From a virus, in IMG/VR virus record IMGVR_UViG_3300050821_013390, positions 1-53,411 of that record: a DNA stretch of 53,411 nucleotides; one strand, 5' to 3'. Positions 18,177 through 53,411 of the stretch are shown one piece after another. A program made the position numbers and the translations under genes. The notes beneath the pieces were generated by a model. The model was not told the origin of the DNA and searched no databases. It was given only the letters and a program-made list of their open reading frames with translations. Each line of letters opens with the position of its first letter. Within the stretch, counting starts at the first letter, position 1.

Positions 18177-21100
18177 CTACCAAGTAAACCATTGAGTGCC
18201 ATTGCTATAAACCCTAACAATTCCATAAGCCCCTAAAGCCGCTGTAGCTGCACCATCAATATTGCCACCTCCTGTTACGTTAACAGTGCTTCCGCCAACC
18301 CCGCTTTCATCTTTTATTATGTAGGTTTGACCTGAGTTTCCAGCTGCTGCGGTAGGTAAATGTATAGTCAAGGTACTGGCGGTACATGCAATGATGTAAT
18401 CAGTAACAAGAGCACTATAAGTTACAGCAGTTGCGGTACGCTCAACCAATATACCGCCTGTAAAATAAACTTGCGTTCCAGTGGCTCCCAATACTACGGA
18501 ATTAGCAACACTGGCCGTCGCGCCAGCTCCTATAGCTGTAGAATTGGTTTGAGTTGCGTGAGTGTTGAATCCTATGCATGTAGAAGTGCTTCCGCTAGCG
18601 CCAGCAGAAGCGCCCACTGCGGTAGCAGCGAGAGCGGTTGCCGAGCTATTACCTATAGCAATTGTATTGGTTTGGCTGGCCGTAGCAGCCGGCCCTATAG
18701 CTACACCCTGGGTGCCTGATGCGTTAGCGCCTTGACCTACTGCAAGTGCTGATGCCCCTGCTGTACTATTGGAACCAATAGCAGTGCAATTACCGCCGGT
18801 AGCAGATGCCGTATTACCTATAGCAATAGATTCATTTGATGTTGCAGTATTACCATTTCCAATATTAATAGCATACGTAGAGGTGCCGCTTGCAGTAGTG
18901 GAGAGGGTGAAATTTCCGTTTGTGGCATTTACGGTAAGCAGAAGACCGCTATCCTTAATCAATGTACCAGTAGTATTATTATAAGTAGCAATATCGCCCG
19001 CTATTGAGGTGCCAGGACCGGTTACATTCCCAGAGCCTGCGCTTAGAGCTACCCATGCGCCATTTTGACGAAACTGAAATGAAGTGGTGCCAGTATCGTA
19101 AATAACCATTCCATTTACCGGCGATGTTACTGAAGCAGTTGTAGTGCGAGGAACTAAAATACCAGTAGTAGTAGCAGTTACATCTAATACCGCAGCCGGG
19201 GTAGAGGTGCCTATACCAACGCTCACAGCATCAGCGCCAGTACCCCCTAAGATTAAAGTATTTGCAACAGTTGCACTTGCGCTTTCTCCCAATGCTGTTG
19301 CATTAGTTGCGCTTGCATGTGCGTTATATCCTAATGCCGTACTAAAATCCCCTGATGCGAAGGAGCTAGGTCCTATTGCTACAGCGTTTTGATGGGTTGC
19401 GTTAGTCGAGGTGCCAATAGCTAAACCACTAGTAATATTTGCATTAGTATTAAAGCCTATTGCTATAGCGTTGGGGCCTGTAGCGCTGGTTGAATTACCT
19501 ATATTTATGTTATTAGTAGAGGAACCACTAGCGGGAGCGGAGAGACTTAAATTTCCAGCCACGCTATTTACAGCAAGTAATGCGCCGCTATCTTTAATTA
19601 ATGTCCCGGTTGTATTATTGTAAGTAGCTATGTCACCCACAACCGATGTTCCAGGACCTGTTACATTGCCTCCCCCTACTGCAACCCATGCAGTATTTTG
19701 ATAAACCATTATTGCAGTAGTTCCTGTATCATAAATAATCATACCGTTAGCGGGAGTCACTATAGAGGCGGTTGTGGTGCGAGGAACTAAAAGAGCCTTT
19801 GTAGTGCTAGTTAAATCTAAAAGAGCTGATGCAGCGGGAGTGGATGTACCTACACCGATACTTACAGCATTTGCTCCTGTTCCACCCAGTATCATAGTGC
19901 TTGCAACAGTTGCGCTTGCATTAATACCTATAGCAACGGCATTAGCGGCAGTAGCACCGGCAGTATCACCTATAGCAATAGAGCCACCAAAAGATGCGGT
20001 AGAATTGTATCCCATAGCAATAGCTTGACTGCCAGCTGCGGCAGCGGTATCACCTATAGCGATTCCCTTACCTCCAGATGTAGTGGCGCTATTACCTATA
20101 GCAATGCCAGTTCCGGCTGATGCAGCAGCTAAATGACCTATGGAAATATCATAGGTACTAGAACCGCTTGCGGTAGCAGATAAACTAAAATCTCCAGTCA
20201 CACTATTTACGGTAGCTAAAAGACCGCTGTCCTTAATTAATGTGCCGGTGGTGTTGTTATACGTTGCTATATCGCCAACTACTGATGTGCCAGGGCCAAC
20301 CACATTTCCAGAACCTGAGCCTAATGCTACCCAAGCTCCAGCTTGACGAAATTTAAATGCTGTAGCGCTATTATCATAAACAATCATGCCGTTAACAGGA
20401 GATGTTACCGCTCCTGTATTGGCGACGCGAGGAACTAATAATCCGCTGTTTGCACTGGTTACATCCAAAACCGCGGCAGGCGTGGACGTGCCTATACCAA
20501 TGCTTAATGCATCAGAAGTGCCCGATACCCCCCCTAATATCATAGTATTTGCAACAGTTGCAGCTGCGCTACCGCCAATTGCAACAGCCTTATCAGCAGT
20601 TACATTTGCAAAATTACCCATAGCTATTGAACCATCTCCAGCAACAGTGGCGTTATTTCCTATGGCTATACTTACACCAAAAACAGACACTCCTGCTGTC
20701 GTTGTTGCCTCATTTCCTATAGCAATACAGCTGGCATCAGCAGCACTAGCTCCTGGTCCAATTGCTATCGCGCCAGTACTGGAATTGGTGTTAGCTTGAG
20801 ATAGCTGACCAATAGCGATACCACTACCACCAGCTGCAAAAGCTGTATCACCAATGGCCACAGAATGGCTGCCTGTGGAGCTCGCATCGGTTCCAATTAT
20901 GACAGGATTAGTAAGGCCATCATCAACAACGGATGCAGAGCCTATGCAGGTAATACCAGAGCCCGTAATATTAGAGGTGCCAGCTGCATGCCCTATAAAT
21001 ATATTTTCATTTCCATCGGTTGTGCCAGCTCCGGCATTAACACCAATTCCTATATTAAAAGTACCAGTATCTATGGCCTCTAATGCGCCATAACCTAGGG

Positions 21101-21623
21101 CGATGTTATTAGGTTCAGCGCCAGTTGAAGCGCTTGGGACAATTAAGAAATTACTTGTAACTGGATCTATAGTTAAGTGAAGGCCAGAATCACTTGGATT
21201 GCCGCTGCCATTAAATACCATGAAATCCCCAGGGGTTCCTGTAATAACAGGCGGAACAATGCCGCCATCCTGGATGCCAGTGCCAAGAGCATTATTAAAT
21301 ACAGCTAAATGCCCCACTGTTGTTGGACCAGTACCAACTACATTGCCTCCCGCGCCGCCTGTACTTATGGATGCCCAAGCACCATTGGTATAAACCTGCA
21401 TTGTATTGGTAGTACTATTATAAATCTGCGAACCATTTACTACATTTAATAAATCTCTTTGGGCTGTAGTCATCCTAGGAAACAAAACCATTCCAGTAGT
21501 TGTTTGCACTTCAAGTGCAGCATCAACGGGACTGTAATTGTTTACCGTATAGGTCGCAGGGGGTGCAGCTATAATGATGTCTGCAAAATTACTGGGGGCC
21601 GCTGGCCGCGAATTAAGTGCCAT
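18177..21623 (-). CDS. Giant tail fibre/spike with YadA-head-like repeats in about 213-aa super-repeats
   Basis: 1148 aa. Many (S/A)IAIGxxAxA units (Hep_Hag/YadA-head-like). Three modules follow the scheme LVPRxxT...NGM(I/V)(I/V)YD...GAWVA...GPGTS(V/I)xGDIATYNNTTGTLIKDSG. Confidence 0.75.
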   Translation of the reverse strand: MALNSRPAAPSNFADIIIAAPPATYTVNNYSPVDAALEVQTTTGMVLFPRMTTAQRDLLNVVNGSQIYNSTTNTMQVYTNGAWASISTGGAGGNVVGTGPTTVGHLAVFNNALGTGIQDGGIVPPVITGTPGDFMVFNGSGNPSDSGLHLTIDPVTSNFLIVPSASTGAEPNNIALGYGALEAIDTGTFNIGIGVNAGAGTTDGNENIFIGHAAGTSNITGSGITCIGSASVVDDGLTNPVIIGTDASSTGSHSVAIGDTAFAAGGSGIAIGQLSQANTNSSTGAIAIGPGASAADASCIAIGNEATTTAGVSVFGVSIAIGNNATVAGDGSIAMGNFANVTADKAVAIGGSAAATVANTMILGGVSGTSDALSIGIGTSTPAAVLDVTSANSGLLVPRVANTGAVTSPVNGMIVYDNSATAFKFRQAGAWVALGSGSGNVVGPGTSVVGDIATYNNTTGTLIKDSGLLATVNSVTGDFSLSATASGSSTYDISIGHLAAASAGTGIAIGNSATTSGGKGIAIGDTAAAAGSQAIAMGYNSTASFGGSIAIGDTAGATAANAVAIGINASATVASTMILGGTGANAVSIGVGTSTPAASALLDLTSTTKALLVPRTTTASIVTPANGMIIYDTGTTAIMVYQNTAWVAVGGGNVTGPGTSVVGDIATYNNTTGTLIKDSGALLAVNSVAGNLSLSAPASGSSTNNINIGNSTSATGPNAIAIGFNTNANITSGLAIGTSTNATHQNAVAIGPSSFASGDFSTALGYNAHASATNATALGESASATVANTLILGGTGADAVSVGIGTSTPAAVLDVTATTTGILVPRTTTASVTSPVNGMVIYDTGTTSFQFRQNGAWVALSAGSGNVTGPGTSIAGDIATYNNTTGTLIKDSGLLLTVNATNGNFTLSTTASGTSTYAINIGNGNTATSNESIAIGNTASATGGNCTAIGSNSTAGASALAVGQGANASGTQGVAIGPAATASQTNTIAIGNSSATALAATAVGASAGASGSTSTCIGFNTHATQTNSTAIGAGATASVANSVVLGATGTQVYFTGGILVERTATAVTYSALVTDYIIACTASTLTIHLPTAAAGNSGQTYIIKDESGVGGSTVNVTGGGNIDGAATAALGAYGIVRVYSNGTQWFTW
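18510..20435 (-). repeat. Three tandem, diverged copies of about 0.64 kb inside the fibre gene
   Basis: The anchor string taat(t/c)aatgt recurs at 18956, 19595 and 20234, exactly 639 bp apart. VPR codons gcgaggaac occur at 19146, 19779 and 20427. Confidence 0.85.
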
Positions 21624-30510: not shown

Positions 30511-33030
30511 CTATTGGTGTGTTTCACTAAAGTGGCCTAATGGCCGTTCTTGCACTTTGTGCTGGTCCGACTCAAATTTGTGTTCTACTTTAAAAACCTC
30601 GGTTTGCGCCCTTAACTGAGCTTCCTGAGCTTTTTCCTGTAGCTTGGCTTGCTCAGTCTCAAACTTAAGGTTTTCTTTAAAGACATCTGTCTCAAGTTTA
30701 GAGTTTGCTTCTTGATGTTTAAGGTGCGAAGCCTCTCTTCTTTGACCAATGTCCTCCAACATAATCTTATTGGGGTCTAATTGATTTTGTTGGGCTTGTT
30801 GTTGTGCTTCCATTTCCTTCTGTGCTGCTTGCGCATCTTCTTGAGCAAGAGCATTTTGGACTTGGGGCATTTGCATAATCTGCATAATGTCCATTTGACC
30901 CATTTGCTGTATTTGCATTTGCACTTGTTGTTGTAATTGCTGCATCTGCGCCTGAACTTCCATTTGCATTTGCGGCATCATCATTGCTTGTTGTTGTAAT
31001 TGCTCAATCTGCGGTTGCATTTGTTGTTGCATGTTTTGCTGCATCTCCTGCAACATGTGAGCAAAAATCTTATAAGCCTTATGCTGTTGCATATTTAAAG
31101 TTATCTGTGCTTGCAATGGCGGAGTTAATCCTCCCTTAACCTCTAAATCATGCAGGAACTTTCCTTTAACCATTATATGCGCATCATGGTCTTGGAATGG
31201 TGCGGCTTTAACGGGTGCGCCCTGTAGAAGAAGCATGTCTTCACTAGTAGGATCTAGGGTTTGTGGTTCCGGCACAGGGGGTAATATTTTATTAATGTCT
31301 TCAATACCCATAGCCTTATACATACGTTCTAATATTTCGCGTTGATTATGTAATTGCGGGGCACTTGAAGACAACTTTAGTAACGCCTCAGCTCGCATAA
31401 TGCGTTGTGTGCTGGTATTGATATTCGGGTCGGACACCGGGATTATATCTATTTGGTCGTTAAAATCTTGTTTTAATATGTAAGTTTGACTATTAGGCAA
31501 TGAGAACGGATATGGCATATCTCCCAGGTATTTACCAAATAGTTTACTCAGGAGCGTTAACTCTATACCTAATGAAAAGTGAAGGCCACGCAAAATAGCT
31601 GACTGGCCTCTGTGAGCTATGTCTAATAAGGCAAGCGTAGTTCCTACAGGGGCTTGAGCATTATTTTCAGAAATTACAGCACTGGTAACAGAGCCAAGCG
31701 CGCGAGTCTCCTCTATTAATTTATCTCTCAACTGTGCTAATACAATCGATGGCTCCGCATATGGCATTAACATCAATGCTTCTTGGATGGGACGGCCGCC
31801 TGTCTCTATATCAAGAAATTCTGCCGGGCCTACTGCTTTGTTATTACTCTTAATGCGCATGCCAGCTGCTTTTAAACCACCTGGGAAGTTCTTTAAAGTA
31901 CCTGCATCTATTAATTGTCTTTGAATAGAGGTTAAGGTGATGGCGTTGCTTCCTAATAGATGGGCCAACCCCCAAGCATAAAGTCCAAAACTAGGTAGGT
32001 ACTGATATTGAACAAAATATTGAATTCTATTAAAGGCATTATCGTTTTGTTCCCAGTTGCGTCTAATTGCCACTACTTTTTTATTGTATTCATCAATAGT
32101 TACAATATAAGGAAGGGGGATGTTATTAGGATTGATATTCTTGTCTATATCTAATTCTAAATTAGTATGTGACTCATAATATGTAAATAAGTCTTTATTA
32201 TCAGAACCCTTGGTGTCAATACCTTCTTGTCTATTAATAGCGGTCTTTAATTTATTATCATCTTCAGTGTCATCATTAATTGCAGGAACTACATTGCCAA
32301 TAAATTGTCCTATTGATTGCTTTAATAAGATGTCTTTACGGGATAATTCCATCCTATGCGTTATGCGGGAGGATTCCATTAAACTTGTGGTATTGTTATT
32401 AACAATTAAATCGTAAGGTTTTATAAAACGGGCAACTGGACGATTTTGAACAAAGTCTTGATAAACTTTACGGAAAGCACACCCAAAGAAACCTACATAT
32501 AATAATAACTTCTCAGAATCCGGATAATATTCCTTATCCATCTGAGTAAGGTAATAATTAAGAAACTTCTTGACTCGGTCGCCCTGCTCTTCTTTCTCGG
32601 GCGTAACCTCTCCTAATATTCTTGCCCCTACCGGGCCGTTTACTGGAAATAATTCGCTTCGGGCTGTTGCCCAGAAATCAATAAGAGTTGTGCCAAGGGT
32701 TGAATCATATGCACCGCATGCTCGCATGAAAGGGACGGTCCTGTACTCATCTACCTTAAAGCCCAGATACTTCAAGACCTTTTCAATAGTGTTTTCCCAT
32801 TCCTGCCGGGACTCTAAATCTTGATTGATGCCTTCTAATAGCTCTTGGGCGATGGTGCCTAGCTGCCCAGCTGATAAGTGCTCGGCTAAATTGGAGTCAA
32901 AAGGAATAGGAGCGCTTTCTTGCGCTTGTTCTTCAGCTAAAGTGTAAACAGATGAGCCATCCGGTAAGTCTTCCGACTTAACGAATGACCCACTTGTCCC
33001 TTCATCTGAAAAGAGATTCGAATCAGACAT
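30511..33030 (-). CDS. Portal protein with Gln/Met-rich C-terminal extension
   Basis: 839 aa. First gene of the leftward virion block, divergent from the large terminase. The call rests on size and position. The C-terminus has a QQNMQQQMQPQIEQLQQQAMMMPQMQMEVQAQMQQLQQQ tract. Confidence 0.6.
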   Translation of the reverse strand: MSDSNLFSDEGTSGSFVKSEDLPDGSSVYTLAEEQAQESAPIPFDSNLAEHLSAGQLGTIAQELLEGINQDLESRQEWENTIEKVLKYLGFKVDEYRTVPFMRACGAYDSTLGTTLIDFWATARSELFPVNGPVGARILGEVTPEKEEQGDRVKKFLNYYLTQMDKEYYPDSEKLLLYVGFFGCAFRKVYQDFVQNRPVARFIKPYDLIVNNNTTSLMESSRITHRMELSRKDILLKQSIGQFIGNVVPAINDDTEDDNKLKTAINRQEGIDTKGSDNKDLFTYYESHTNLELDIDKNINPNNIPLPYIVTIDEYNKKVVAIRRNWEQNDNAFNRIQYFVQYQYLPSFGLYAWGLAHLLGSNAITLTSIQRQLIDAGTLKNFPGGLKAAGMRIKSNNKAVGPAEFLDIETGGRPIQEALMLMPYAEPSIVLAQLRDKLIEETRALGSVTSAVISENNAQAPVGTTLALLDIAHRGQSAILRGLHFSLGIELTLLSKLFGKYLGDMPYPFSLPNSQTYILKQDFNDQIDIIPVSDPNINTSTQRIMRAEALLKLSSSAPQLHNQREILERMYKAMGIEDINKILPPVPEPQTLDPTSEDMLLLQGAPVKAAPFQDHDAHIMVKGKFLHDLEVKGGLTPPLQAQITLNMQQHKAYKIFAHMLQEMQQNMQQQMQPQIEQLQQQAMMMPQMQMEVQAQMQQLQQQVQMQIQQMGQMDIMQIMQMPQVQNALAQEDAQAAQKEMEAQQQAQQNQLDPNKIMLEDIGQRREASHLKHQEANSKLETDVFKENLKFETEQAKLQEKAQEAQLRAQTEVFKVEHKFESDQHKVQERPLGHFSETHQ

Positions 33031-33209: not shown

Positions 33210-34820
33210 ATGAATAACAACTTAAACGCGTATTTACTAGAATTCTTAGGCAAATATCCTGAGATAGTTAAAGAACAAAGGCAAGAAAAGGCTTATGAGA
33301 CCTCGTTTTATGAGTTCGCAAAAGCTGCATGGCCTAATATTGATTCCAGTACCTTCCAGGATGCTTGGCATGCTCGCGCCATATGCGAGCATTTAGAGGC
33401 TGTAGTTAGGGGTCTAATACCAAAGTTAATCATTAATGTACCTCCTCGTACTGGCAAGTCCGCCCTTATATCAATCATGTTCCCAGCCTGGGTATGGATT
33501 ACTCAGCCTAAAATGAAGTTCCTGTACGGCTCTCACGCTTATAGCCTCGCTCTAGACCATTCACGGCGTTGCCGCCTACTAATAGAGAGTGACTGGTATC
33601 AAAAACGCTGGGGAAGCATATTTAAGCTTTCAGCTGACCAGTCCACCAAACACTTCTTCACCAATGACAAGCATGGGCACAGACTGGCTACGAGCGTTGG
33701 GGGAGGGGTTACTGGCTTTGGAGCTAACATATTAATAGGCGACGATTTAAATGACCTAAGCGATGGGTATTCTTCCACGGCTCGTGACCGAGCTAATGAC
33801 TGGGTAAGTCGCGTATGGTCTTCCCGTACCAATCCTGGTCAATTCAGTGCCCATATAATAGTGCAGCAAAGGGTAGCGTGTTCTGATGTAACGGGTTACC
33901 TATTAGATAAAGACGAGAAAAAAGAATGGGTGAAGCTAATCTTGCCCATGGAATTTGAAACAGCTAGACGCGCTAAAACCATTATCCTACCCTCTACCTA
34001 TCCCAATACATGGGAAGACCCTAGAAAGAGAGAGGCAGAGCTCCTGTGGCCCGCAGGAATAGATAGATTAAAAGTCCAAACATTTAAAGGGGACTTAGGA
34101 GATTATAACTACGCAGGACAACATCAACAAAGACCCAGTCCTGAAGCTGGAGGTATTATTCAAAAGAGTTGGTACCAATGGTGGAAGCAACCAGCACCCC
34201 CCAAGTTATTGCAAACTGTTCAAAGCTGGGATACAGCCTTAGAGGCTAAAGATGAGAATTGTTATTCAGCTTGCACAACATGGGGGTTATTCGAGGACGA
34301 TAAGAAGGCAACTAATATAATCTTGTTAAATATGTGGCGAGGTAAGGTTGAGTTCCCAGTGCTAAGAAAAATGGCTAAGCGTCTATATGAGGACTATAGA
34401 GACGACGGTAGCATTGCAATAAAGCCCGATAATAAGCATGTTCCCACCTTTGTGCTGGTAGAAGCCAAGGCATCAGGTAGCTCCTTAATACATGAGCTCC
34501 AAAGCGCGGGCATTCCGGCCTATGGGTTTGACCCAGGAAGGTTTGGCGAGAAGATTCAAAGGGTAAGGCTAGTTACTCACATGATTGAAGGGGGAAGGGT
34601 CTGGGTGCCAGCTTATCCCCCTGAATATGTGAGACTCCGGAACTTTGCCGATATCTTTGTTAATGAGACCTCCCTATTCCCCAAGAGTGATAGCCGGGAC
34701 TTAGTTGACACGATGACCCAAGTTTTATTAAGATTGAATACTTCGGGGCTTATAAAACACCCTGATGCAAAGGACATGGAAGATACAGGAACCGTATTGA
34801 GTGATGCTCTGTACTGGTAA
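33210..34820 (+). CDS. terL: Terminase large subunit
   Basis: Walker [17 protein letters not shown] Walker B-like motif, and a C-terminal nuclease-type region (VLVEAKASG...DSRDLVDT). Confidence 0.9.
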
Positions 34821-34848: not shown

Positions 34849-35067
34849 ATGCTTATCCTCACAAGGAAAATTGGCGATGCCATAATGATTGGCGATGATA
34901 TATCTATAGTTGTGCTAAATGTTATGGCTGAAAACAGGGTGACATTTGGTATAAAAGCACCAAAAGATGTAGATATTTATAGACAAGAGATATATAATTC
35001 AGCTAAAAGAAAGCCCAAGCTGGATAAAGATATAGAAAAGGAGAGTGAGGTTTTTTATAATTCTTAG
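34849..35067 (+). CDS. csrA: CsrA/RsmA-family RNA-binding translational regulator
   Basis: [49 protein letters not shown] aligns along its length with E. coli CsrA. ATG at 34849 with AAGGAA SD. The track's earlier start at 34801 overlaps terL. Confidence 0.9.
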
Positions 35068-35314: not shown

Positions 35315-35782
35315 ATGGCAAGTGTTAATAAAGTAATTCTAATTGGAAATCTAGGTAAAGAGCCTGAATGCAAGTGTATGCCCAGCGGAACCCAGGTTAC
35401 CAAGTTCAGTCTGGCTACTAATGAGAAGTGGAAAGATAAGAAGACTGGCGAGATGCAAACAAAAACTGAATGGCATAATATAGTTATGTATAATAAGTTG
35501 GCTGAGAGAGCAGCCTTTTTAAAAAAAGGTATGTCTGTTTATATTGAAGGCTCTATCAGCACGAATAAATGGAAGGACAAGGATGGTCAGGATAAAACCA
35601 CAACTAATATAGCAGCTAGCGCTATGCAGATATTAAGCGGAATGGAAGAAATAAAAAGACAACTCGAGGATATGGGCGGAGGAATAAAAAACTTCCCCGG
35701 TGAATTAACTCTCAAAAATATACCCGAGCATAAAGCACAGACTACGTTGGGATTCTTTGCTGATGACGATTTACCTTTTTAA
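35315..35782 (+). CDS. ssb: Single-stranded DNA-binding protein
   Basis: The OB-fold N-terminus VNKVILIGNLGKEPE...TEWHNIVMY and the acidic tail DDDLPF are canonical SSB features. Confidence 0.95.
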   Translation: MASVNKVILIGNLGKEPECKCMPSGTQVTKFSLATNEKWKDKKTGEMQTKTEWHNIVMYNKLAERAAFLKKGMSVYIEGSISTNKWKDKDGQDKTTTNIAASAMQILSGMEEIKRQLEDMGGGIKNFPGELTLKNIPEHKAQTTLGFFADDDLPF

Positions 35783-36807: not shown

Positions 36808-37527
36808 CTATAACGATATATTATAAATTATCCCCAACCCACAGGTTAGGCTGTTCTTTGCTTGGATATGTCGATGGGGGTTGGTTTTAGAATATGCCCG
36901 TAAACGATGGGGTCGCCAATAATTATTAAAGACCTCTCTTACCGTAGCCTCCACGCTAAAATCTTTAACATTGTATCCCATTCCAATTTTTATTACCGGT
37001 AATATCTTGGTATTCTGGAAAATAGAACTAATATCAACCATTGTTGTATTATATTGATAAATAAAGGCGTGTGCTTTTACTCGAGAAATACTAAGACCCA
37101 ATCCCCCTAGAGCATAGCAATTACCAAAATTATTAATCTTTATCAATACCATTAATGGTATATGTGACTGTCGCATCTTAGTGCGCATCCTAACAACATG
37201 TCCGGCTGGTATAGGATTGCTTCCGGCTACCATTTCTTCAGACCCAATAGATGCATTATATTTTTGACAGAAATAATTCTCGTATCCTGCTTCAATCCCA
37301 AAATGACGCGAAAACATAAATCCCGCGCTAACACCTACGCCTTTTGTATTCTTATGGAATAAGTTTTTTCCGTAATTGTTTTCCCATTGCGTATGATTAG
37401 ATAAGGCTGATACCCCCAGTCTAATGGTCTTAGGATGGGCATATACTATCTTAAATGAACCATGTTTTTCGGCATAGGAAATGCTGGCAAATATTAATAA
37501 TATGCTACTTAAGATTAATACTTTCAT
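36808..37527 (-). CDS. Outer-membrane beta-barrel protein (OmpA-N/Ail-Lom-like moron)
   Basis: Signal peptide MKVLILSSILLIFASISYA|E (start 37525-37527). Alternating amphipathic strands GVSAGFMFSRHFGIEAGYENY, YALGGLGLSISRV, VIKIGMGYNV, LTCGLGIIYNI. Confidence 0.65.
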   Translation of the reverse strand: MKVLILSSILLIFASISYAEKHGSFKIVYAHPKTIRLGVSALSNHTQWENNYGKNLFHKNTKGVGVSAGFMFSRHFGIEAGYENYFCQKYNASIGSEEMVAGSNPIPAGHVVRMRTKMRQSHIPLMVLIKINNFGNCYALGGLGLSISRVKAHAFIYQYNTTMVDISSIFQNTKILPVIKIGMGYNVKDFSVEATVREVFNNYWRPHRLRAYSKTNPHRHIQAKNSLTCGLGIIYNISL

Positions 37528-37550
37528 TATTTTATTTGCCCTTCTGTCAT

Positions 37551-37712
37551 TTATGGAGCCCATTTATAGGGTTCACCCATGCCGGGGCCCATCGAGAACG
37601 GTCTCCATACGCCACCCTTATACACGCAAATCGCCACCGTCCCATCAGCAGGGATCCAAAGCTTTTCCTGTTGTTCAACAGTCATGTGGGGGATATTTAT
37701 TTTTTCAGTCAT
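37551..37712 (-). CDS. Small early protein (53 aa), possible 4th member of the Y-x-x-G-x-W family
   Basis: Not in the ORF track. ATG at 37710-37712, 3 nt upstream of the preceding gene's stop codon (8-nt overlap). MTEK... N-terminus like its neighbours. AICVYKGGVWRPF motif. Confidence 0.45.
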   Translation of the reverse strand: MTEKINIPHMTVEQQEKLWIPADGTVAICVYKGGVWRPFSMGPGMGEPYKWAP

Positions 37713-40897: not shown

Positions 40898-41125
40898 TTA
40901 TACCCTATCTTCTGGAAAAAAGGGATTGCCACGATTAAATACACACAACCCCGCTCTCCTGTTATCTTCGATAGCCTCTGCTAATATCTCTTCCTTTATT
41001 AAAACTTCCTCGTCATCTAACTCTAAATCTATTAAATATTGATAAATATCTTTCATATACTCCCTTAATGTTGTTGCGCTATTACCAGTAATCTCAATGA
41101 GAATCGCAACCTTTGGTTCTTTCAT
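40898..41125 (-). CDS. Early acidic hypothetical protein
   Basis: Packed operon. Confidence 0.55.
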   Translation of the reverse strand: MKEPKVAILIEITGNSATTLREYMKDIYQYLIDLELDDEEVLIKEEILAEAIEDNRRAGLCVFNRGNPFFPEDRV

Positions 41126-41330
41126 ATAGTATATCGATATCTCGTTTAATTTTACGAAGCTCTTTTTCTAATTTTTCTAAATGAGCTTTCAACTCATCTG
41201 TCACTGTAAAGTCTTCTTCTTCATCTTGCACGCACCTACCTCCTAATTGCATCGGGCCATCATATTTAGTAAGCTTATGAATAACCCATTTAATATAATC
41301 CAACTGCTCTAATACTTTTATTACACTCAT
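41094..41330 (-). CDS. Early hypothetical protein
   Basis: Packed operon. Coiled-coil C-terminus. Confidence 0.55.
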   Translation of the reverse strand: MSVIKVLEQLDYIKWVIHKLTKYDGPMQLGGRCVQDEEEDFTVTDELKAHLEKLEKELRKIKRDIDILYERTKGCDSH

Positions 41331-41332
41331 TC

Positions 41333-41569
41333 TTACCCCTTCTTGTCCAACTCATTCGCTAACACTTTAACCCTACCCACAATTTCCTTAGAACTTTCCT
41401 CAAGCTCCTTAAGTTTTCCCTTATTATAGAGCCAGGGATTATCCTTAACGCTATAGAACACTGGCTTACGCGCACCACCATGCAAGTCATCCGCTAACCA
41501 TCTAATCATCTTGATAGCCTCAGACTGCTCTATCTTTTCTTTTAAGTCAGAGAATGCCTTATATGTCAT
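41333..41569 (-). CDS. Early hypothetical protein
   Basis: Packed operon. Confidence 0.55.
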   Translation of the reverse strand: MTYKAFSDLKEKIEQSEAIKMIRWLADDLHGGARKPVFYSVKDNPWLYNKGKLKELEESSKEIVGRVKVLANELDKKG

Positions 41570-41984
41570 GCTCTTTCTCTAGCCATTCCGGCAACTTATT
41601 TAAACGAAAGATAATCATATCTAATTCATCCCGCATCCTGCCAATCTGGCCCTCAAGCTTCTCCGCTCTATCCTGCATTCTCATTATTTCAACTATAGCT
41701 CTACTTAGGCATATATCCTTAATTTCTTGCGGAATCGCAGCGTTTTTCTTGACTTTCTTCTTAAACAAGCTTCCGGTCATTCCTAAACTTACTTTATGAT
41801 TAGCTAAAGTTTTCTTAATATCGCTCACTTGCTTCTTACCCATATTAACCATCTTCAACAAATCCTTCTCGGTTTTTTGCACCAAATCTCCAATAACATT
41901 AATCCCATCATGCTTTAAGGCATTGGTAGCCCGCGTGGAAAGTTTTAAATCCTCTACTGGTAAATCTAAAAGCCCTTTATACAT
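41559..41984 (-). CDS. RNA polymerase alpha-subunit C-terminal-domain (alpha-CTD) homologue fused to a coiled coil
   Basis: LPVEDLKLSTRATNALKHDGINVIGDLVQKTEKDLLKMVNMGKKQVSDIKKTLANHKVSLGM aligns without gaps to E. coli RpoA 255-316. Strong AAGGAG SD. Confidence 0.8.
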   Translation of the reverse strand: MYKGLLDLPVEDLKLSTRATNALKHDGINVIGDLVQKTEKDLLKMVNMGKKQVSDIKKTLANHKVSLGMTGSLFKKKVKKNAAIPQEIKDICLSRAIVEIMRMQDRAEKLEGQIGRMRDELDMIIFRLNKLPEWLEKEHDI

Positions 41985-42103
41985 CTTCCCTTCTCCTTTG
42001 CTATTTTCTCCACCGCTTCACGAATAAGCTTAATCTCATCTTTAATTCCATATACTGCGCACATAATGAAAAATATGAACAGTATTGTAAAAAACCTTGC
42101 CAT
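41966..42103 (-). CDS. Mini membrane protein (45 aa)
   Basis: Not in the ORF track. MARFFTILFIFFIMCAVYG TM segment. The ATG directly follows the upstream stop. Confidence 0.4.
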   Translation of the reverse strand: MARFFTILFIFFIMCAVYGIKDEIKLIREAVEKIAKEKGRCIKGF

Positions 42104-42699: not shown

Positions 42700-42944
42700 T
42701 CTATGTCCTGTTCCATTTCTTTTTCCATTTCTTTTATGTAATTCGCCGCAGCTTCCCACCGGCTTTCATGTCCATCTAATATCTGACACAACGTAGGGGG
42801 CTGATTAAAATGGTCAGCCAAAGCCCTCATAATGAAAGACTCTTTCTCTTCTTTTCTATCAGGATTTATTAACATATCATCAAGATTGTTAATTATGTCA
42901 TCTCTATTTATAGTAATAGTAACTGCTTCATCTTTATCTTTCAT
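42696..42944 (-). CDS. Early acidic hypothetical protein
   Basis: Packed operon. Confidence 0.55.
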   Translation of the reverse strand: MKDKDEAVTITINRDDIINNLDDMLINPDRKEEKESFIMRALADHFNQPPTLCQILDGHESRWEAAANYIKEMEKEMEQDIE

Positions 42945-43168
42945 TCGTTGTCCCTAGAATTATTTTCAACCCACCTCAATATATCCGACTTACGATAGAA
43001 ATAAAAGAACCTATTCTTCTGGAATGGAATGCCGCCCGCTTTGTATGCCATATCCTTCAGCCATGAAACAGGGCGTCCTATTGCAGCAGCAGTGACTGGG
43101 CGACTAAGTAATGCATCAAGAGGAGCTTCATCAAATTGTGCTAAGAGCTCTTCTTTATCCATAGCCAT
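42941..43168 (-). CDS. Xis/AlpA-type (MerR-like winged-helix) DNA-binding protein
   Basis: LLSRPVTAAAIGRPVSWLKDMAYKAGGIPFQK...YRKSDILRWV. The ATG at 43166-43168 is preferred to the track's TTG. Confidence 0.55.
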   Translation of the reverse strand: MAMDKEELLAQFDEAPLDALLSRPVTAAAIGRPVSWLKDMAYKAGGIPFQKNRFFYFYRKSDILRWVENNSRDNE

Positions 43169-43252
43169 CGTAAACAAATCCTTCTCAGTTTTTCATACCA
43201 GGCCTCCAATACTAAATCTGTAAAAGAGTTAACGGCCCACCTATGACTATGG

Positions 43253-43392: not shown

Positions 43393-43632
43393 TCACTTCA
43401 TCATCTCCATCCATTCAAGCAAGTCTTCCTTAACACAAAACCACCTCTCTCCATGCTTTGACAAAGGAACCCCTTTAGCCCTTAACATGCCAGCGGTGGC
43501 ATAGTAGCAACCACTCTTGTGAAGAACAGCATTTATAGTGGTACACGGAAACACCTCACCAAGAGGCGCATTGTTGAAATCTTCTCGCAGCTCAGCGCGT
43601 GTTTTTCTTTTCATCATCATACTCCCTTTCAT
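43393..43632 (-). CDS. Xis/AlpA-type DNA-binding protein (paralogue of 42941..43168)
   Basis: PCTTINAVLHKSGCYYATAGMLRAKGVPLSK...VKEDLLEWM. Confidence 0.5.
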   Translation of the reverse strand: MKGSMMMKRKTRAELREDFNNAPLGEVFPCTTINAVLHKSGCYYATAGMLRAKGVPLSKHGERWFCVKEDLLEWMEMMK

Positions 43633-48114: not shown

Positions 48115-48579
48115 CTAATATCTAGCTGCATTGTAATGTTTATACTTACACTTCTCACTCATATCATGATAAACCAAATCTAGCATTCCATCTGAAATCA
48201 TCCTCTCTCCCTGAACCGAACCATGTAATATATTACATATCTCATCATTAGCTGCCTTCCATGTCGAATATGATGACCTTACAACTTCCGCGCCCTTCTT
48301 GGTTAACTCATAATGAACCGACCTTCTGTCTTTAGCTTCTGTTTGTTTGATATAACCGCGCATCTCCAACGGTATTAAATTGCGCGTAAGCGTAGACCTA
48401 TCCATGCCCAATGTCTCAGAAAGCTCAGTTAACGTTTCATACTTACCCGATAACCCAACCAATAGATTAAGTTGAGCCCCCCTAATCCCTAACTTATGTA
48501 GAGAAAAGTCAAAGATTTTAGTAACCATTCTGCTAATCTTTTTTAATTTCAAAAAGTAACATTTTTCATTTATATTCAC
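48115..48579 (-). CDS. MarR-family transcriptional regulator
   Basis: LGIRGAQLNLLVGLSGKYETLTELSETLGMDRSTLTRNLIPLEMRGYIKQTEAKDRRSVHYELTKKG is a canonical MarR winged HTH. Confidence 0.85.
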   Translation of the reverse strand: MNINEKCYFLKLKKISRMVTKIFDFSLHKLGIRGAQLNLLVGLSGKYETLTELSETLGMDRSTLTRNLIPLEMRGYIKQTEAKDRRSVHYELTKKGAEVVRSSYSTWKAANDEICNILHGSVQGERMISDGMLDLVYHDMSEKCKYKHYNAARY

Positions 48580-50940: not shown

Positions 50941-52362
50941 TTACCTTTGCTCTCTGCCCAAGCTCAGCATCATTTCGTGATACGGGATAGAATTCACGAA
51001 GTTGGGGCTGAGAATGTTTAGGTTGCACATTTTCATCAATGAATCGATGGACATGCGCTCTCTTTCCTGAATGAGGAGATAAGTTTTGGTTTTAGCTGTC
51101 TCCGATAATTTATCCCACCATGCAGCGTTTTCGCTAGCAGTAGGGAATATTTTTGTAGCCTGGGGGGCTTGTGTGGTTCTCGCCATTGTTTGCTCCGTAG
51201 TTTTAATTTCTGTGAAAGCTGTAATCACATCTTCCCAACGATGTTGGTTAAGCCATGTACTTGCTCTCGCCCATTCTTCGCACCAGAGGTTGCGATTAAT
51301 CTTTTCCTGACGTTCTTTGATTTGAGCCTCTATCGCTCCCATCATTGTTTCATTATTAGTTAATTTAATTGCTTTCTCATGGTAGGCCCTGCTGGCCATG
51401 TGCTTGCCTTTCTTATTCGGATAGATGGCCCAGAATTTATCAAAGCCGCCTGTATCTAAGTTTGTTTTCTTTGTTTTAATTATTGGGGGAGAAAGTTCAA
51501 GCGGGTCAGGCGAAGCGTGACCAATATATTTATTTGTTCTTTCTTTATTTGTTCTTTGATTGTTTATTCTTAGTGTCTGGTTTTCCGTATACGGTTTTCC
51601 AGGAAGCGGTTTTCCAGGAAGCGGTGAGGTTGGGTCATCCTTCACCGTATCCGGCTTTCCAGGAAGCGGCTGAACATCTGTAAAACAAGGTGTTTCAACC
51701 GCATACGGCTTTCCAGGAAGCGGTTGTACGGTTGTTGGGTGATATTGCCGTGCTGTGGATAACTTTTGTGCTGTGGATAAGTCTGTGGATAAAACCGTAT
51801 ACGGCTTTCCAGGAAGCGGTGATAGCCCTTTAAAATAAGGGTTTAAACTAGGATGCTCATATAAAATCATTATTGATGGACCAAATTTGCCTTTGGATCC
51901 CTTTTTTTGCTCCATGTAGATATAACCATGGTTTTTTAGTTCGTTGAGGGAACGATATAATGCGTCTCGACCATTTGGAGAATGTCTAATAACCTCGTTA
52001 ACGCATATATTCCAGTTATCATTCATGCTTAATAAATAAGCTAAGAGACCCTTTGCTGCCCAAGAAAGATGCTCATCTCGGATACTTTCATTATGGATCC
52101 TGGTGTAGTTAAGACCTTTGTGTTGGGGCATCCTAAAGATACATTTTTTACGAGAGCTAACTTTGGGGGGCTGTATAGGTTCTATTACAGGGAGGGCTTC
52201 TTTGATTACTTCAGTTGTTTCTTCATCAATAATATCTGGTATTTGGTGTTGAAGGTTGTTCATATTGCGAGAAGCTTTCTCTATGCGTTCGAGTATTTTA
52301 GGAAGACATTCTGAAAAAGGGCGCATCATTAAAAATCCTTGTAAATTAAACGGGTCATCCAT
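50941..52362 (-). CDS. Iteron-type replication initiator (winged-helix N-domain; origin embedded in the ORF)
   Basis: YTRIHNESIRDEHLSWAAKGLLAYLLSMNDNW...RDALYRSLNELKNHGYIYMEQ resembles Rep/DnaD-like wHTH. The central linker PLPGKPY x5 is encoded by the iterons. C-terminal FDKFWAIYPNKKGK motif. Confidence 0.75.
   Translation of the reverse strand: MDDPFNLQGFLMMRPFSECLPKILERIEKASRNMNNLQHQIPDIIDEETTEVIKEALPVIEPIQPPKVSSRKKCIFRMPQHKGLNYTRIHNESIRDEHLSWAAKGLLAYLLSMNDNWNICVNEVIRHSPNGRDALYRSLNELKNHGYIYMEQKKGSKGKFGPSIMILYEHPSLNPYFKGLSPLPGKPYTVLSTDLSTAQKLSTARQYHPTTVQPLPGKPYAVETPCFTDVQPLPGKPDTVKDDPTSPLPGKPLPGKPYTENQTLRINNQRTNKERTNKYIGHASPDPLELSPPIIKTKKTNLDTGGFDKFWAIYPNKKGKHMASRAYHEKAIKLTNNETMMGAIEAQIKERQEKINRNLWCEEWARASTWLNQHRWEDVITAFTEIKTTEQTMARTTQAPQATKIFPTASENAAWWDKLSETAKTKTYLLIQERERMSIDSLMKMCNLNILSPNFVNSIPYHEMMLSLGREQR
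51525..51575. promoter_or_regulatory. AT-rich tandem repeats (candidate DNA-unwinding element)
   Basis: TTTATTTGTTCTTT at 51529-51542 and 51544-51557, plus a degenerate third copy. Confidence 0.5.
51585..51820. repeat. Iterons: 5 copies of TTTCCAGGAAGCGG (4 with the CCGTATACGGY 5' extension)
   Basis: Core copies at 51596, 51611, 51656, 51710 and 51806, all in the same orientation. Confidence 0.85.
51754..51792 (-). promoter_or_regulatory. Cluster of three perfect DnaA boxes (TTATCCACA on the minus strand)
   Basis: TGTGGATAA at 51754-51762, 51772-51780 and 51784-51792, between iterons 4 and 5. Confidence 0.8.
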
Positions 52363-53140: not shown

Positions 53141-53411
53141 TGAATTTAAGAAAGCTAGAGCTAAAGGTCTAGGCGGCAGTGATATCGGGGCCATATTTGA
53201 CTGTCCTACCGCATATAAATCGGCATATGAGCTCTATATGGAAAAGGTATATGGAACAGAGAGGGATATATCCACTGAGCAGCCTGTCATATGGGGTAAT
53301 CTATTAGAAGAGCCTATAGCACAACACTATTCTCAAGTGACTGGAAAAGAGTTAATTAATCCAGGCAATAGCGCTATACTTGATTACCAGCCTTATCCAT
53401 TTCTATTAGCT
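53133..53411 (+). CDS. YqaJ/lambda-Exo-type exonuclease, N-terminal part (continues at window start)
   Basis: ATG at 53133 with AAGGAA SD. MSDEFKKARAKGLGGSDIGAIFD...WGNLLEEPIAQHY. Open to the window end and in frame with 24..716 via the 98-nt overlap. Confidence 0.85.
   Translation, partial: MSDEFKKARAKGLGGSDIGAIFDCPTAYKSAYELYMEKVYGTERDISTEQPVIWGNLLEEPIAQHYSQVTGKELINPGNSAILDYQPYPFLLA
53314..53411. repeat. Terminal direct repeat, copy 2 (identical to 1..98)
   Basis: Exact 98-nt identity with the window start. Confidence 0.95.

Follow-up and report, generated by a model that had tools for sequence, protein, structure and literature searches.

The window analysed here is the whole 53,411-nt stretch of the IMG/VR virus record IMGVR_UViG_3300050821_013390, a phage genome in which one small gene encodes a 141-residue protein that, judged from profile matches and a predicted structure, carries a genuine RNA polymerase (RNAP) alpha C-terminal domain (alphaCTD), detached from the rest of the alpha subunit RpoA and followed by a lysine-rich linker and a long predicted heptad helix. 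The gene is a complete open reading frame (ORF) on the minus strand at 41559..41984 (ATG at 41984; the stop codon, included in these coordinates, at 41559-41561); a first-pass annotation, made by reading the sequence, had placed the ORF at exactly these positions and left out its strand. Our tentative reading, based on the sequence and the model, is that the protein may be a bivalent binder of A/T-tract DNA that interferes with the use of alphaCTD-dependent (UP-element) promoters by the host RNAP, a role that we regard as possible and not as established.

An alphaCTD without the rest of the polymerase subunit

The domain spans residues 5-70 (41775..41972, minus strand), which correspond to E. 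coli RpoA 252-317 and have the predicted (HhH)2 fold. The first-pass annotation had quoted the phage and E. coli peptides, both of them exactly, and had aligned them without gaps over RpoA 255-316; the alignment holds, with 33/62 identities (53%), and the phage residues involved are 8-69 in one-based counting and not 7-68, an offset of one. The Pfam profile RNA_pol_A_CTD (PF03118) matches residues 5-61 at its positions 10-66 of 67 with 71.3 bits (E=5.4e-20; curated gathering score 23.8 bits), and the generic HHH_5 profile reaches 18 bits, 53 below the alphaCTD profile. The match to the alphaCTD family is therefore significant, and the similarity is more than the generic helix-hairpin-helix likeness that the first-pass annotation had held up as the alternative outcome of a Pfam search. 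A phmmer search of the PDB ranked E. coli alphaCTD chains first (E=3.5e-15), ahead of about 50 further RpoA entries.

The same assignment follows from structure prediction. An AlphaFold2 model built from a 23-row alignment (mean predicted local distance difference test score, pLDDT, of 80) has a compact five-helix alphaCTD fold at residues 9-62 (pLDDT ~90), and Foldseek superposes the model on the E. coli alphaCTD with a root-mean-square deviation (rmsd) of 0.3-0.7 Å over 66-68 residues. The top PDB matches are all alphaCTD chains, from E. coli, Vibrio, Caulobacter and Bacillus (rmsd 0.3-1.0 Å over 65-68 residues, E values down to 1.8e-8), and among them are the E. coli domain bound to CAP and DNA, the E. 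coli domain with sigma region 4 and UP DNA, and Caulobacter alphaCTD on AT-rich DNA. The AlphaFold and Foldseek comparison, which the first-pass annotation had proposed, sets a predicted model, not an experimental structure, against these solved ones.

That annotation had also described the protein as lacking an alpha N-terminal domain (NTD), and rightly so: Pfam yields PF03118 alone, with no match to PF01193 or PF01000, which cover the NTD, and the NCBIfam rpoA equivalog models match by their last ~65 positions only, at 74 bits, far below their cutoff of 302 bits. The protein has 141 residues as compared with about 310-340 for RpoA. Without the NTD it cannot assemble into RNAP.

DNA-contact residues are kept and partner-contact residues are changed

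When E. coli alpha binds A/T-rich UP elements, its residues R265, N268, N294, G296, K297 and K298 reach into the narrow minor groove and hold on to it. Their equivalents in the phage protein are R18, N21, N47, G49, K50 and K51, so that the four contacts reported as conserved in the first-pass annotation (R265, N268, G296 and K298) are joined by N294 and K297. The substitutions listed there also agree with our residue map, both next to the DNA-contact residues (C269 to A and S299 to Q) and at the activator and sigma determinants (E261 to K and V287 to K), and to the latter we add R317T and L318G. Among 63 non-redundant viral free-standing alphaCTDs, the R265 equivalent is invariant (63/63), its position having been outside the search pattern used to collect them, and 45/63 retain N268; free variation is seen at position 261, which contacts sigma, and at position 287, which contacts CAP, and Ala or Val is common at position 269.

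The phage domain is also basic. Over 64 aligned domain columns its net charge is +3, as compared with -2 to 0 in 57 gammaproteobacterial RpoA alphaCTDs, its pI is 9.5 versus 5.1 for the E. coli alphaCTD, and a KKKVKK linker follows it. The viral set as a whole is shifted in the positive direction relative to gammaproteobacterial RpoA (Mann-Whitney p=3e-7, for sequences that are phylogenetically non-independent). The invariance of R265 in 63/63 viral domains while positions 261 and 287 vary, the basic charge, the fusions of other viral alphaCTDs to DNA-binding modules and the alphaCTD-like domain of PglW (both described below) together point to DNA binding as the activity for which this protein has presumably been selected.

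The same residues bear on a different kind of decoy, one aimed at proteins, which we consider unlikely. The phage protein would then titrate host proteins that dock on the alphaCTD, such as CRP, Fis, SoxS/MarA-type activators, NusA AR2 and Spx-like proteins, or it would absorb enzymes or defence factors that target the alphaCTD, with the coiled coil adding avidity or tethering a second partner. Its predicted fold is near-identical to the one seen when the alphaCTD is bound to CAP, sigma region 4, Spx or NusA, the 287 determinant survives in part (T285, E286, L289, L290 and G315), and the basic 265 surface is retained and more positive; acidic partners such as NusA-AR2 reportedly bind this basic surface (the 2JZB work). 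However, the best-known partner-specificity residues are those that have changed (E261K, V287K, R317T and L318G), the retained residues of the 287 region have structural roles as well, and the high variability of partner-contact positions across the viral homologues argues against selection for a conserved partner surface.

A flexible linker and an orphan heptad helix

Residues 71-85 (GSLFKKKVKKNAAIP; 41730..41774, minus strand) form a lysine-rich, flexible linker with a net charge of about +4, which AlphaFold2 models at a pLDDT of 52-57 without regular secondary structure. Residues 86-131 (41592..41729, minus strand) form a long amphipathic helix of 5.5 heptads, a probable coiled-coil oligomerisation element, which the model renders as one uninterrupted helix at 86-129 (pLDDT 78-89). 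Its a/d series reads L93, A96, I100, M103, A107, L110, I114, M117, L121, I124, L128 and L131; the heptad score was reached by only 163 of 20,000 shuffles (p=0.008), and a second, windowed test gave p=0.004. The coiled coil of about 65 residues proposed in the first-pass annotation is thus retained in kind, given the predicted helix and the heptad shuffles, and shortened to about 45 residues, since residues 71-85 are low-confidence linker. The heptad helix most probably pairs two or more chains.

As far as sequence comparison reaches, the C-terminal 71 residues are an orphan. The tail alone found no match in 5.8 billion proteins by a word-seeded search, in the PDB or in NCBIfam, and no significant match among 80 viral alphaCTD ORFs by BLAST or phmmer. 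The sole full-length relative of the protein among the best 150 hits from 1.84 billion representative proteins is P0002 (96% identical), for which no encoding contigs are on record; it differs at 5/133 residues, none of them a DNA-contact or heptad a/d position.

Set against the RpoA CTD (E. coli residues 249-329; PDB 1LB2, 3K4G, 3N97 and 3N4M), the phage protein therefore shares the Pfam family, the identity level over the 62 aligned positions, the fold and most of the 265 determinant, whereas it is without the NTD and the rpoA operon setting and is basic rather than acidic. Its oligomerisation element is a C-terminal coiled-coil-like helix, in RpoA the N-terminal domain.

Free-standing alphaCTD proteins are common in phages

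The first-pass annotation had called such a protein an unusual device, and this we found to be overstated. A pattern scan of IMG/VR derived from the alphaCTD alignment identified at least 128 viral contigs that encode alphaCTD relatives, and a Foldseek search of BFVD returned about ten uncultured-Caudovirales proteins of 98-139 residues that UniProt names automatically as 'RNA polymerase, alpha subunit, C-terminal' (for example A0A6J5QDR9 with 133, A0A6J5L490 with 131 and A0A6J7WD60 with 135 residues). Similar proteins are found in Rhodococcus phage Finch (A0A2P1JY10) and Mycobacterium phage Mithril (A0A5Q2WLP1). The protein studied here is an orphan-tailed addition to an already annotated, functionally uncharacterised kind of phage protein. 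A full-text literature search, the coverage of which excluded most subscription journals, found no paper on phage-encoded alphaCTD homologues.

We fetched 80 of the IMG/VR loci (L005-L084), of which 3 proved to be full-length RpoA and the rest encode proteins of ~100-290 residues, some cut by contig ends; all of the viral proteins scanned (54/54) passed PF03118. With the UniProt/BFVD phage proteins, these loci resemble the studied protein in being short, in having one alphaCTD and no NTD, and in the invariant R265. The IMG/VR genes lie among replication and packaging genes: at nine loci with neighbours checked (five with the N-terminal-alphaCTD layout and four sigma-region-4 fusions) the neighbours are phage genes for DNA polymerase, primase/helicase, terminase, portal, anti-repressor, RecE/RecT and integrase.

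The studied protein differs from most of these relatives in its architecture. In 35 of 53 non-redundant IMG/VR proteins an N-terminal extension precedes the alphaCTD, the opposite domain order, while 14/53 share the studied layout of an alphaCTD followed by a tail of 40-100 residues (L020 is likewise 141 residues long), and heptad-like tails occur in L015, L020 and L026. The extensions are mutually unrelated, and none of them is detectably homologous to the tail of the studied protein. Because a heptad signal is present in only 9/50 extensions, against about 2.5 expected by chance in a crude test, we rejected the coiled-coil tail as a general rule of phage alphaCTD proteins; it is one recurrent solution among them.

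Other viral proteins join the alphaCTD to a recognised DNA-binding domain. Six of the 54 scanned also carry sigma70 region 4, with 54-63 bits in L023, L049 and L055 and 35 bits in L024; these four fusions, in which the alphaCTD is C-terminal (L023:5461-6198, L049:5398-6216, L055:5401-6207 and L024:5482-6186), are above the Pfam cutoff, and their neighbours are genes for an anti-repressor, a DnaD-like loader, RecE/RecT, a methyltransferase and an integrase. Sigma region 4 and the alphaCTD are neighbours in the holoenzyme, where they read the -35 and the UP element, respectively. In a further viral protein above the Pfam cutoff (L060:4717-5463), an Arc-like ribbon-helix-helix domain occupies the N-terminal part and an alphaCTD the C-terminal part. 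All of these resemble the studied protein in that the alphaCTD is detached from RNAP and joined to a second module, and their domain content suggests that the alphaCTD may serve them as a promoter-upstream DNA-binding unit. In contrast to the fusions, which have a sequence-specific DNA-binding domain, the studied protein has a helix and no second reading domain, and therefore any specificity must stem from the alphaCTD itself plus avidity.

A related use is described for bacterial defence: according to a 2026 paper, the nucleic-acid-binding component of the BREX kinase PglW includes a helical domain similar to the alphaCTD of RNAP (PMC12839542). The NCBIfam model for this protein (NF033442) gives a weak match to the phage alphaCTD at positions 799-889 (E=4e-4).

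Judged by sequence, the alphaCTD domain appears widely used outside RpoA. Separately from the phage proteins, we observed metagenomic proteins of 500-1800 residues (P0005, P0006, P0014 and others) with up to 12 tandem alphaCTD-like repeats, and many of 150-250 residues with two or three alphaCTD copies. A tblastn search of 50,697 phage records gave 19 hits, of which the annotated ones lie in bacterial rpoA genes, and these were treated as contamination and not as phage homologues. An unannotated 46-kb record, MT835508.1 (INPHARED; L004:2575-4711), carries the bacterial rpsD-rpoA-rplQ genes; some records filed as phage thus hold this bacterial cluster through contamination or mis-binning and mimic 'phage rpoA' matches.

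A possible competitor for UP elements

The first-pass annotation had offered two decoys as hypotheses, one that occupies UP elements and would starve rRNA-type host promoters, and one that titrates alphaCTD-binding factors; the decoy idea seems plausible to us. The role that we tentatively favour for the phage protein would work as follows. Made from a replication-proximal block of small genes, the free alphaCTD protein would act as a bivalent minor-groove binder at A/T tracts through its paired heptad helices, an 'alpha dimer without the polymerase' in which dimerisation module and CTD come in reversed order. It would recognise the targets of the host alpha dimer, A/T-rich UP-type DNA, and by occupying UP-like sites would compete with the host polymerase's own alphaCTDs. 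UP-dependent (rRNA-type) host promoters would then lose their advantage, and host RNAP would be freed for phage promoters. The E261K change would remove a favourable contact with sigma region 4, as would suit a competitor more than a co-activator.

Other means of attacking the interaction of alphaCTD and UP element are known from phages, and this precedent supports the UP-competitor reading. The gp67 protein of Staphylococcus aureus phage G1 blocks the binding of alphaCTD to UP elements and hence rRNA promoters (PMC3694059), and the T4 enzymes Alt and ModA ADP-ribosylate Arg265 of alpha, which abolishes both UP and CRP interactions (PMC2988021). The likeness lies in the proposed outcome only, namely that UP-dependent host promoters would lose their advantage while other promoters are spared. 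The mechanisms differ, given that gp67 binds sigma and Alt/ModA modify alpha covalently, whereas the phage alphaCTD is proposed to compete for the DNA site by mimicry; Pfam and PHROG searches found no gp67-like or ADP-ribosyltransferase domain in the alphaCTD protein.

Several points weigh against a competitor of this kind. Isolated alphaCTD binds UP DNA weakly, so that a competitor would need a high copy number or avidity, and in the alanine-scan literature on E. coli alpha the C269A change and changes at S299 reduce UP function, an objection that is offset in part by the frequency of Ala and Val at position 269 in the viral set. The conservation of R265 could partly come from a structural role or from the ancestry of the domain. 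The sequence does not identify the DNA target, host UP elements being a proposal, and the early timing is read from gene order and the bivalency from a predicted helix. Finally, UP-consensus-like sites in the phage genome number 14, as compared with 19.3 +/- 5.5 expected from shuffles, and are thus neither depleted nor enriched; at this chance level there is no sign of self-avoidance.

Much of what speaks for binding to host DNA would serve as well for a protein directed at the phage's own DNA, an explanation that we hold to be somewhat unlikely. The alphaCTD would here be a generic A/T minor-groove module, and the oligomer would work at the phage's promoters or its origin, whether to activate, to repress or as an architectural factor, or it would be an H-NS-like or counter-silencing nucleoid protein. 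The kept contact residues, the invariant R265 and the basic charge apply to it equally, as do the use of an alphaCTD-like domain as the DNA-binding part of PglW and the fusions of alphaCTD with Arc repressor-like domains and with sigma region 4, the latter being a typical domain of late activators in phages; with 59% A+T, the phage genome is itself rich in potential sites. Yet an alphaCTD and a coiled coil without a major-groove reading head would have low site specificity, and the phage genome shows no conspicuous repeats of operator-like or UP-like sites. In H-NS, a coiled coil for oligomerisation leads through a flexible, basic linker to a small domain, which inserts an arginine into the narrow minor groove of A/T-rich DNA; the phage protein has the same parts in reverse order. 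This is an analogy of design only, because the fold is unrelated and the alphaCTD protein has no Pfam similarity to H-NS, MvaT or Lsr2.

The UP-competitor reading may be extended, more doubtfully, to a class: phages might widely deploy detached upstream-recognition modules as DNA-site mimics that out-compete host RNAP at UP and -35 regions. Within such a class would fall the alphaCTD alone, the alphaCTD on an oligomerising helix (the protein studied here, a minimal 'alpha dimer decoy') and the alphaCTD joined to sigma region 4.

The gene and its operon

The gene is one cistron in a densely packed leftward operon, given that its ORF overlaps an upstream ORF of 45 residues by 19 nt and a downstream ORF of 78 residues by 11 nt. 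A Shine-Dalgarno sequence read from the DNA (AAGGAG, 41993..41998, minus strand) lies 8 nt 5' of the ATG. A sigma70 promoter scan scored below the level expected from shuffles. The leftward block, which contains some 45 small ORFs over ~14 kb, starts at the replication initiator, and from this order and context early expression of the gene can reasonably be inferred. Its setting is one of small phage ORFs, not the rpsD-rpoA-rplQ/ribosomal-protein operon of a cellular genome. Searches of PHROGs returned no significant family for the alphaCTD protein or for its immediate neighbours. An identical 141-residue protein was called on independent metagenome contigs; these come from JGI sample 3300021402 and two ENA assemblies and, with 1 mismatch in 17.4 kb, represent the same genome as the window.

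These features make it highly improbable that the gene has no function and is a piece of host rpoA, captured and by chance still open. Its domain clearly descends from an RpoA of the gammaproteobacterial type; all 80 of the best cellular alphaCTDs belong to gammaproteobacterial full-length RpoA (50-58% identity, in a search whose pattern was biased toward gamma-type motifs), and none stands out as donor. However, an identity of at most 58% to every cellular alphaCTD found indicates that the capture was not recent. The ORF is intact, has a strong Shine-Dalgarno sequence and is translationally coupled to its neighbours, the domain is fused in frame to an unrelated tail that is predicted to be structured, the few changes in P0002 avoid the DNA-contact and heptad a/d positions, and the same type of gene is present in more than 100 phage contigs.

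Other genes of the leftward block were noted in passing. In the same operon, 1-1.6 kb upstream of the alphaCTD gene, two small paralogous ORFs (42941-43177 and 43393-43632, both on the minus strand) match phrog_2528, a family of unknown function. The 78-residue ORF at 41094-41330 (minus strand), two genes downstream of the alphaCTD gene, has an end that by eye looks like heptads (ELKAHLEKLEKELRKIKRDIDILYERTKG), and it could in principle pair with the helix of the alphaCTD protein. A winged-helix (MarR/IclR-like) DNA-binding protein encoded at 48115-48579 (minus strand) is a candidate phage regulator.

The phage genome and its host

The window holds a phage genome, with genes for the large terminase (33210-34820, plus strand), portal (30511-33030, minus strand), virion proteins and the replication initiator (50941-52362, minus strand). 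Since its first 99 bases (1-99) recur exactly at 53313-53411, it is very probably a circularly assembled, complete genome of about 53,312 bp (~53.3 kb). The best relatives of its terminase, from Roseobacter phages CRP-901/902, are only ~40% identical, and a near-identity DNA search of the region against the 50,697 phage records found no match. Of the phage ORFs that were scanned, none was recognisable as an RNA polymerase or a sigma factor, and therefore the phage seems to rely on host RNAP throughout.

Several other genes touch on the host. A CsrA homologue (34849-35067, plus strand; PF02599, 74.9 bits) lies just past the terminase and ahead of the SSB gene (35315-35782) and is a possible post-transcriptional host-manipulation gene. 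A protein of 1148 residues with eight YadA-head repeats (18177-21623, minus strand) is adhesin-like and probably a fibre, and a 251-residue ORF (36808-37563, minus strand) has sub-threshold similarity to OMP_b-brl/OmpA beta-barrels (23.4 bits against a 28.7-bit cutoff). Based on the canonical Shine-Dalgarno sequence, the YadA-head and OMP-like genes, the CsrA homologue and the gammaproteobacterial origin of the closest alphaCTDs, the host is probably Gram-negative and gammaproteobacterial.

Implications for phage control of host transcription

Through its contacts with UP elements and activators, the alphaCTD holds a central place in the control of bacterial transcription, rRNA synthesis included. 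The single gene described here is not categorically new; the class to which it belongs, including the sigma-region-4 fusions, looks unstudied and is readily testable, and the protein itself is small and soluble-looking. If the alphaCTD is merely a generic A/T-binding module of phage regulators, the finding would be an ordinary one that is still useful for annotation. If the UP-competitor reading is true, mimicry of the domain would be a third phage route against the alphaCTD, beside covalent modification by T4 Alt/ModA and steric blocking by G1 gp67. In the fusions of sigma region 4 and alphaCTD, the upstream half of promoter recognition is present in full, and the stand-alone and fused proteins together would then make up a class of homology-based factors for the takeover of host transcription that has not been described before.

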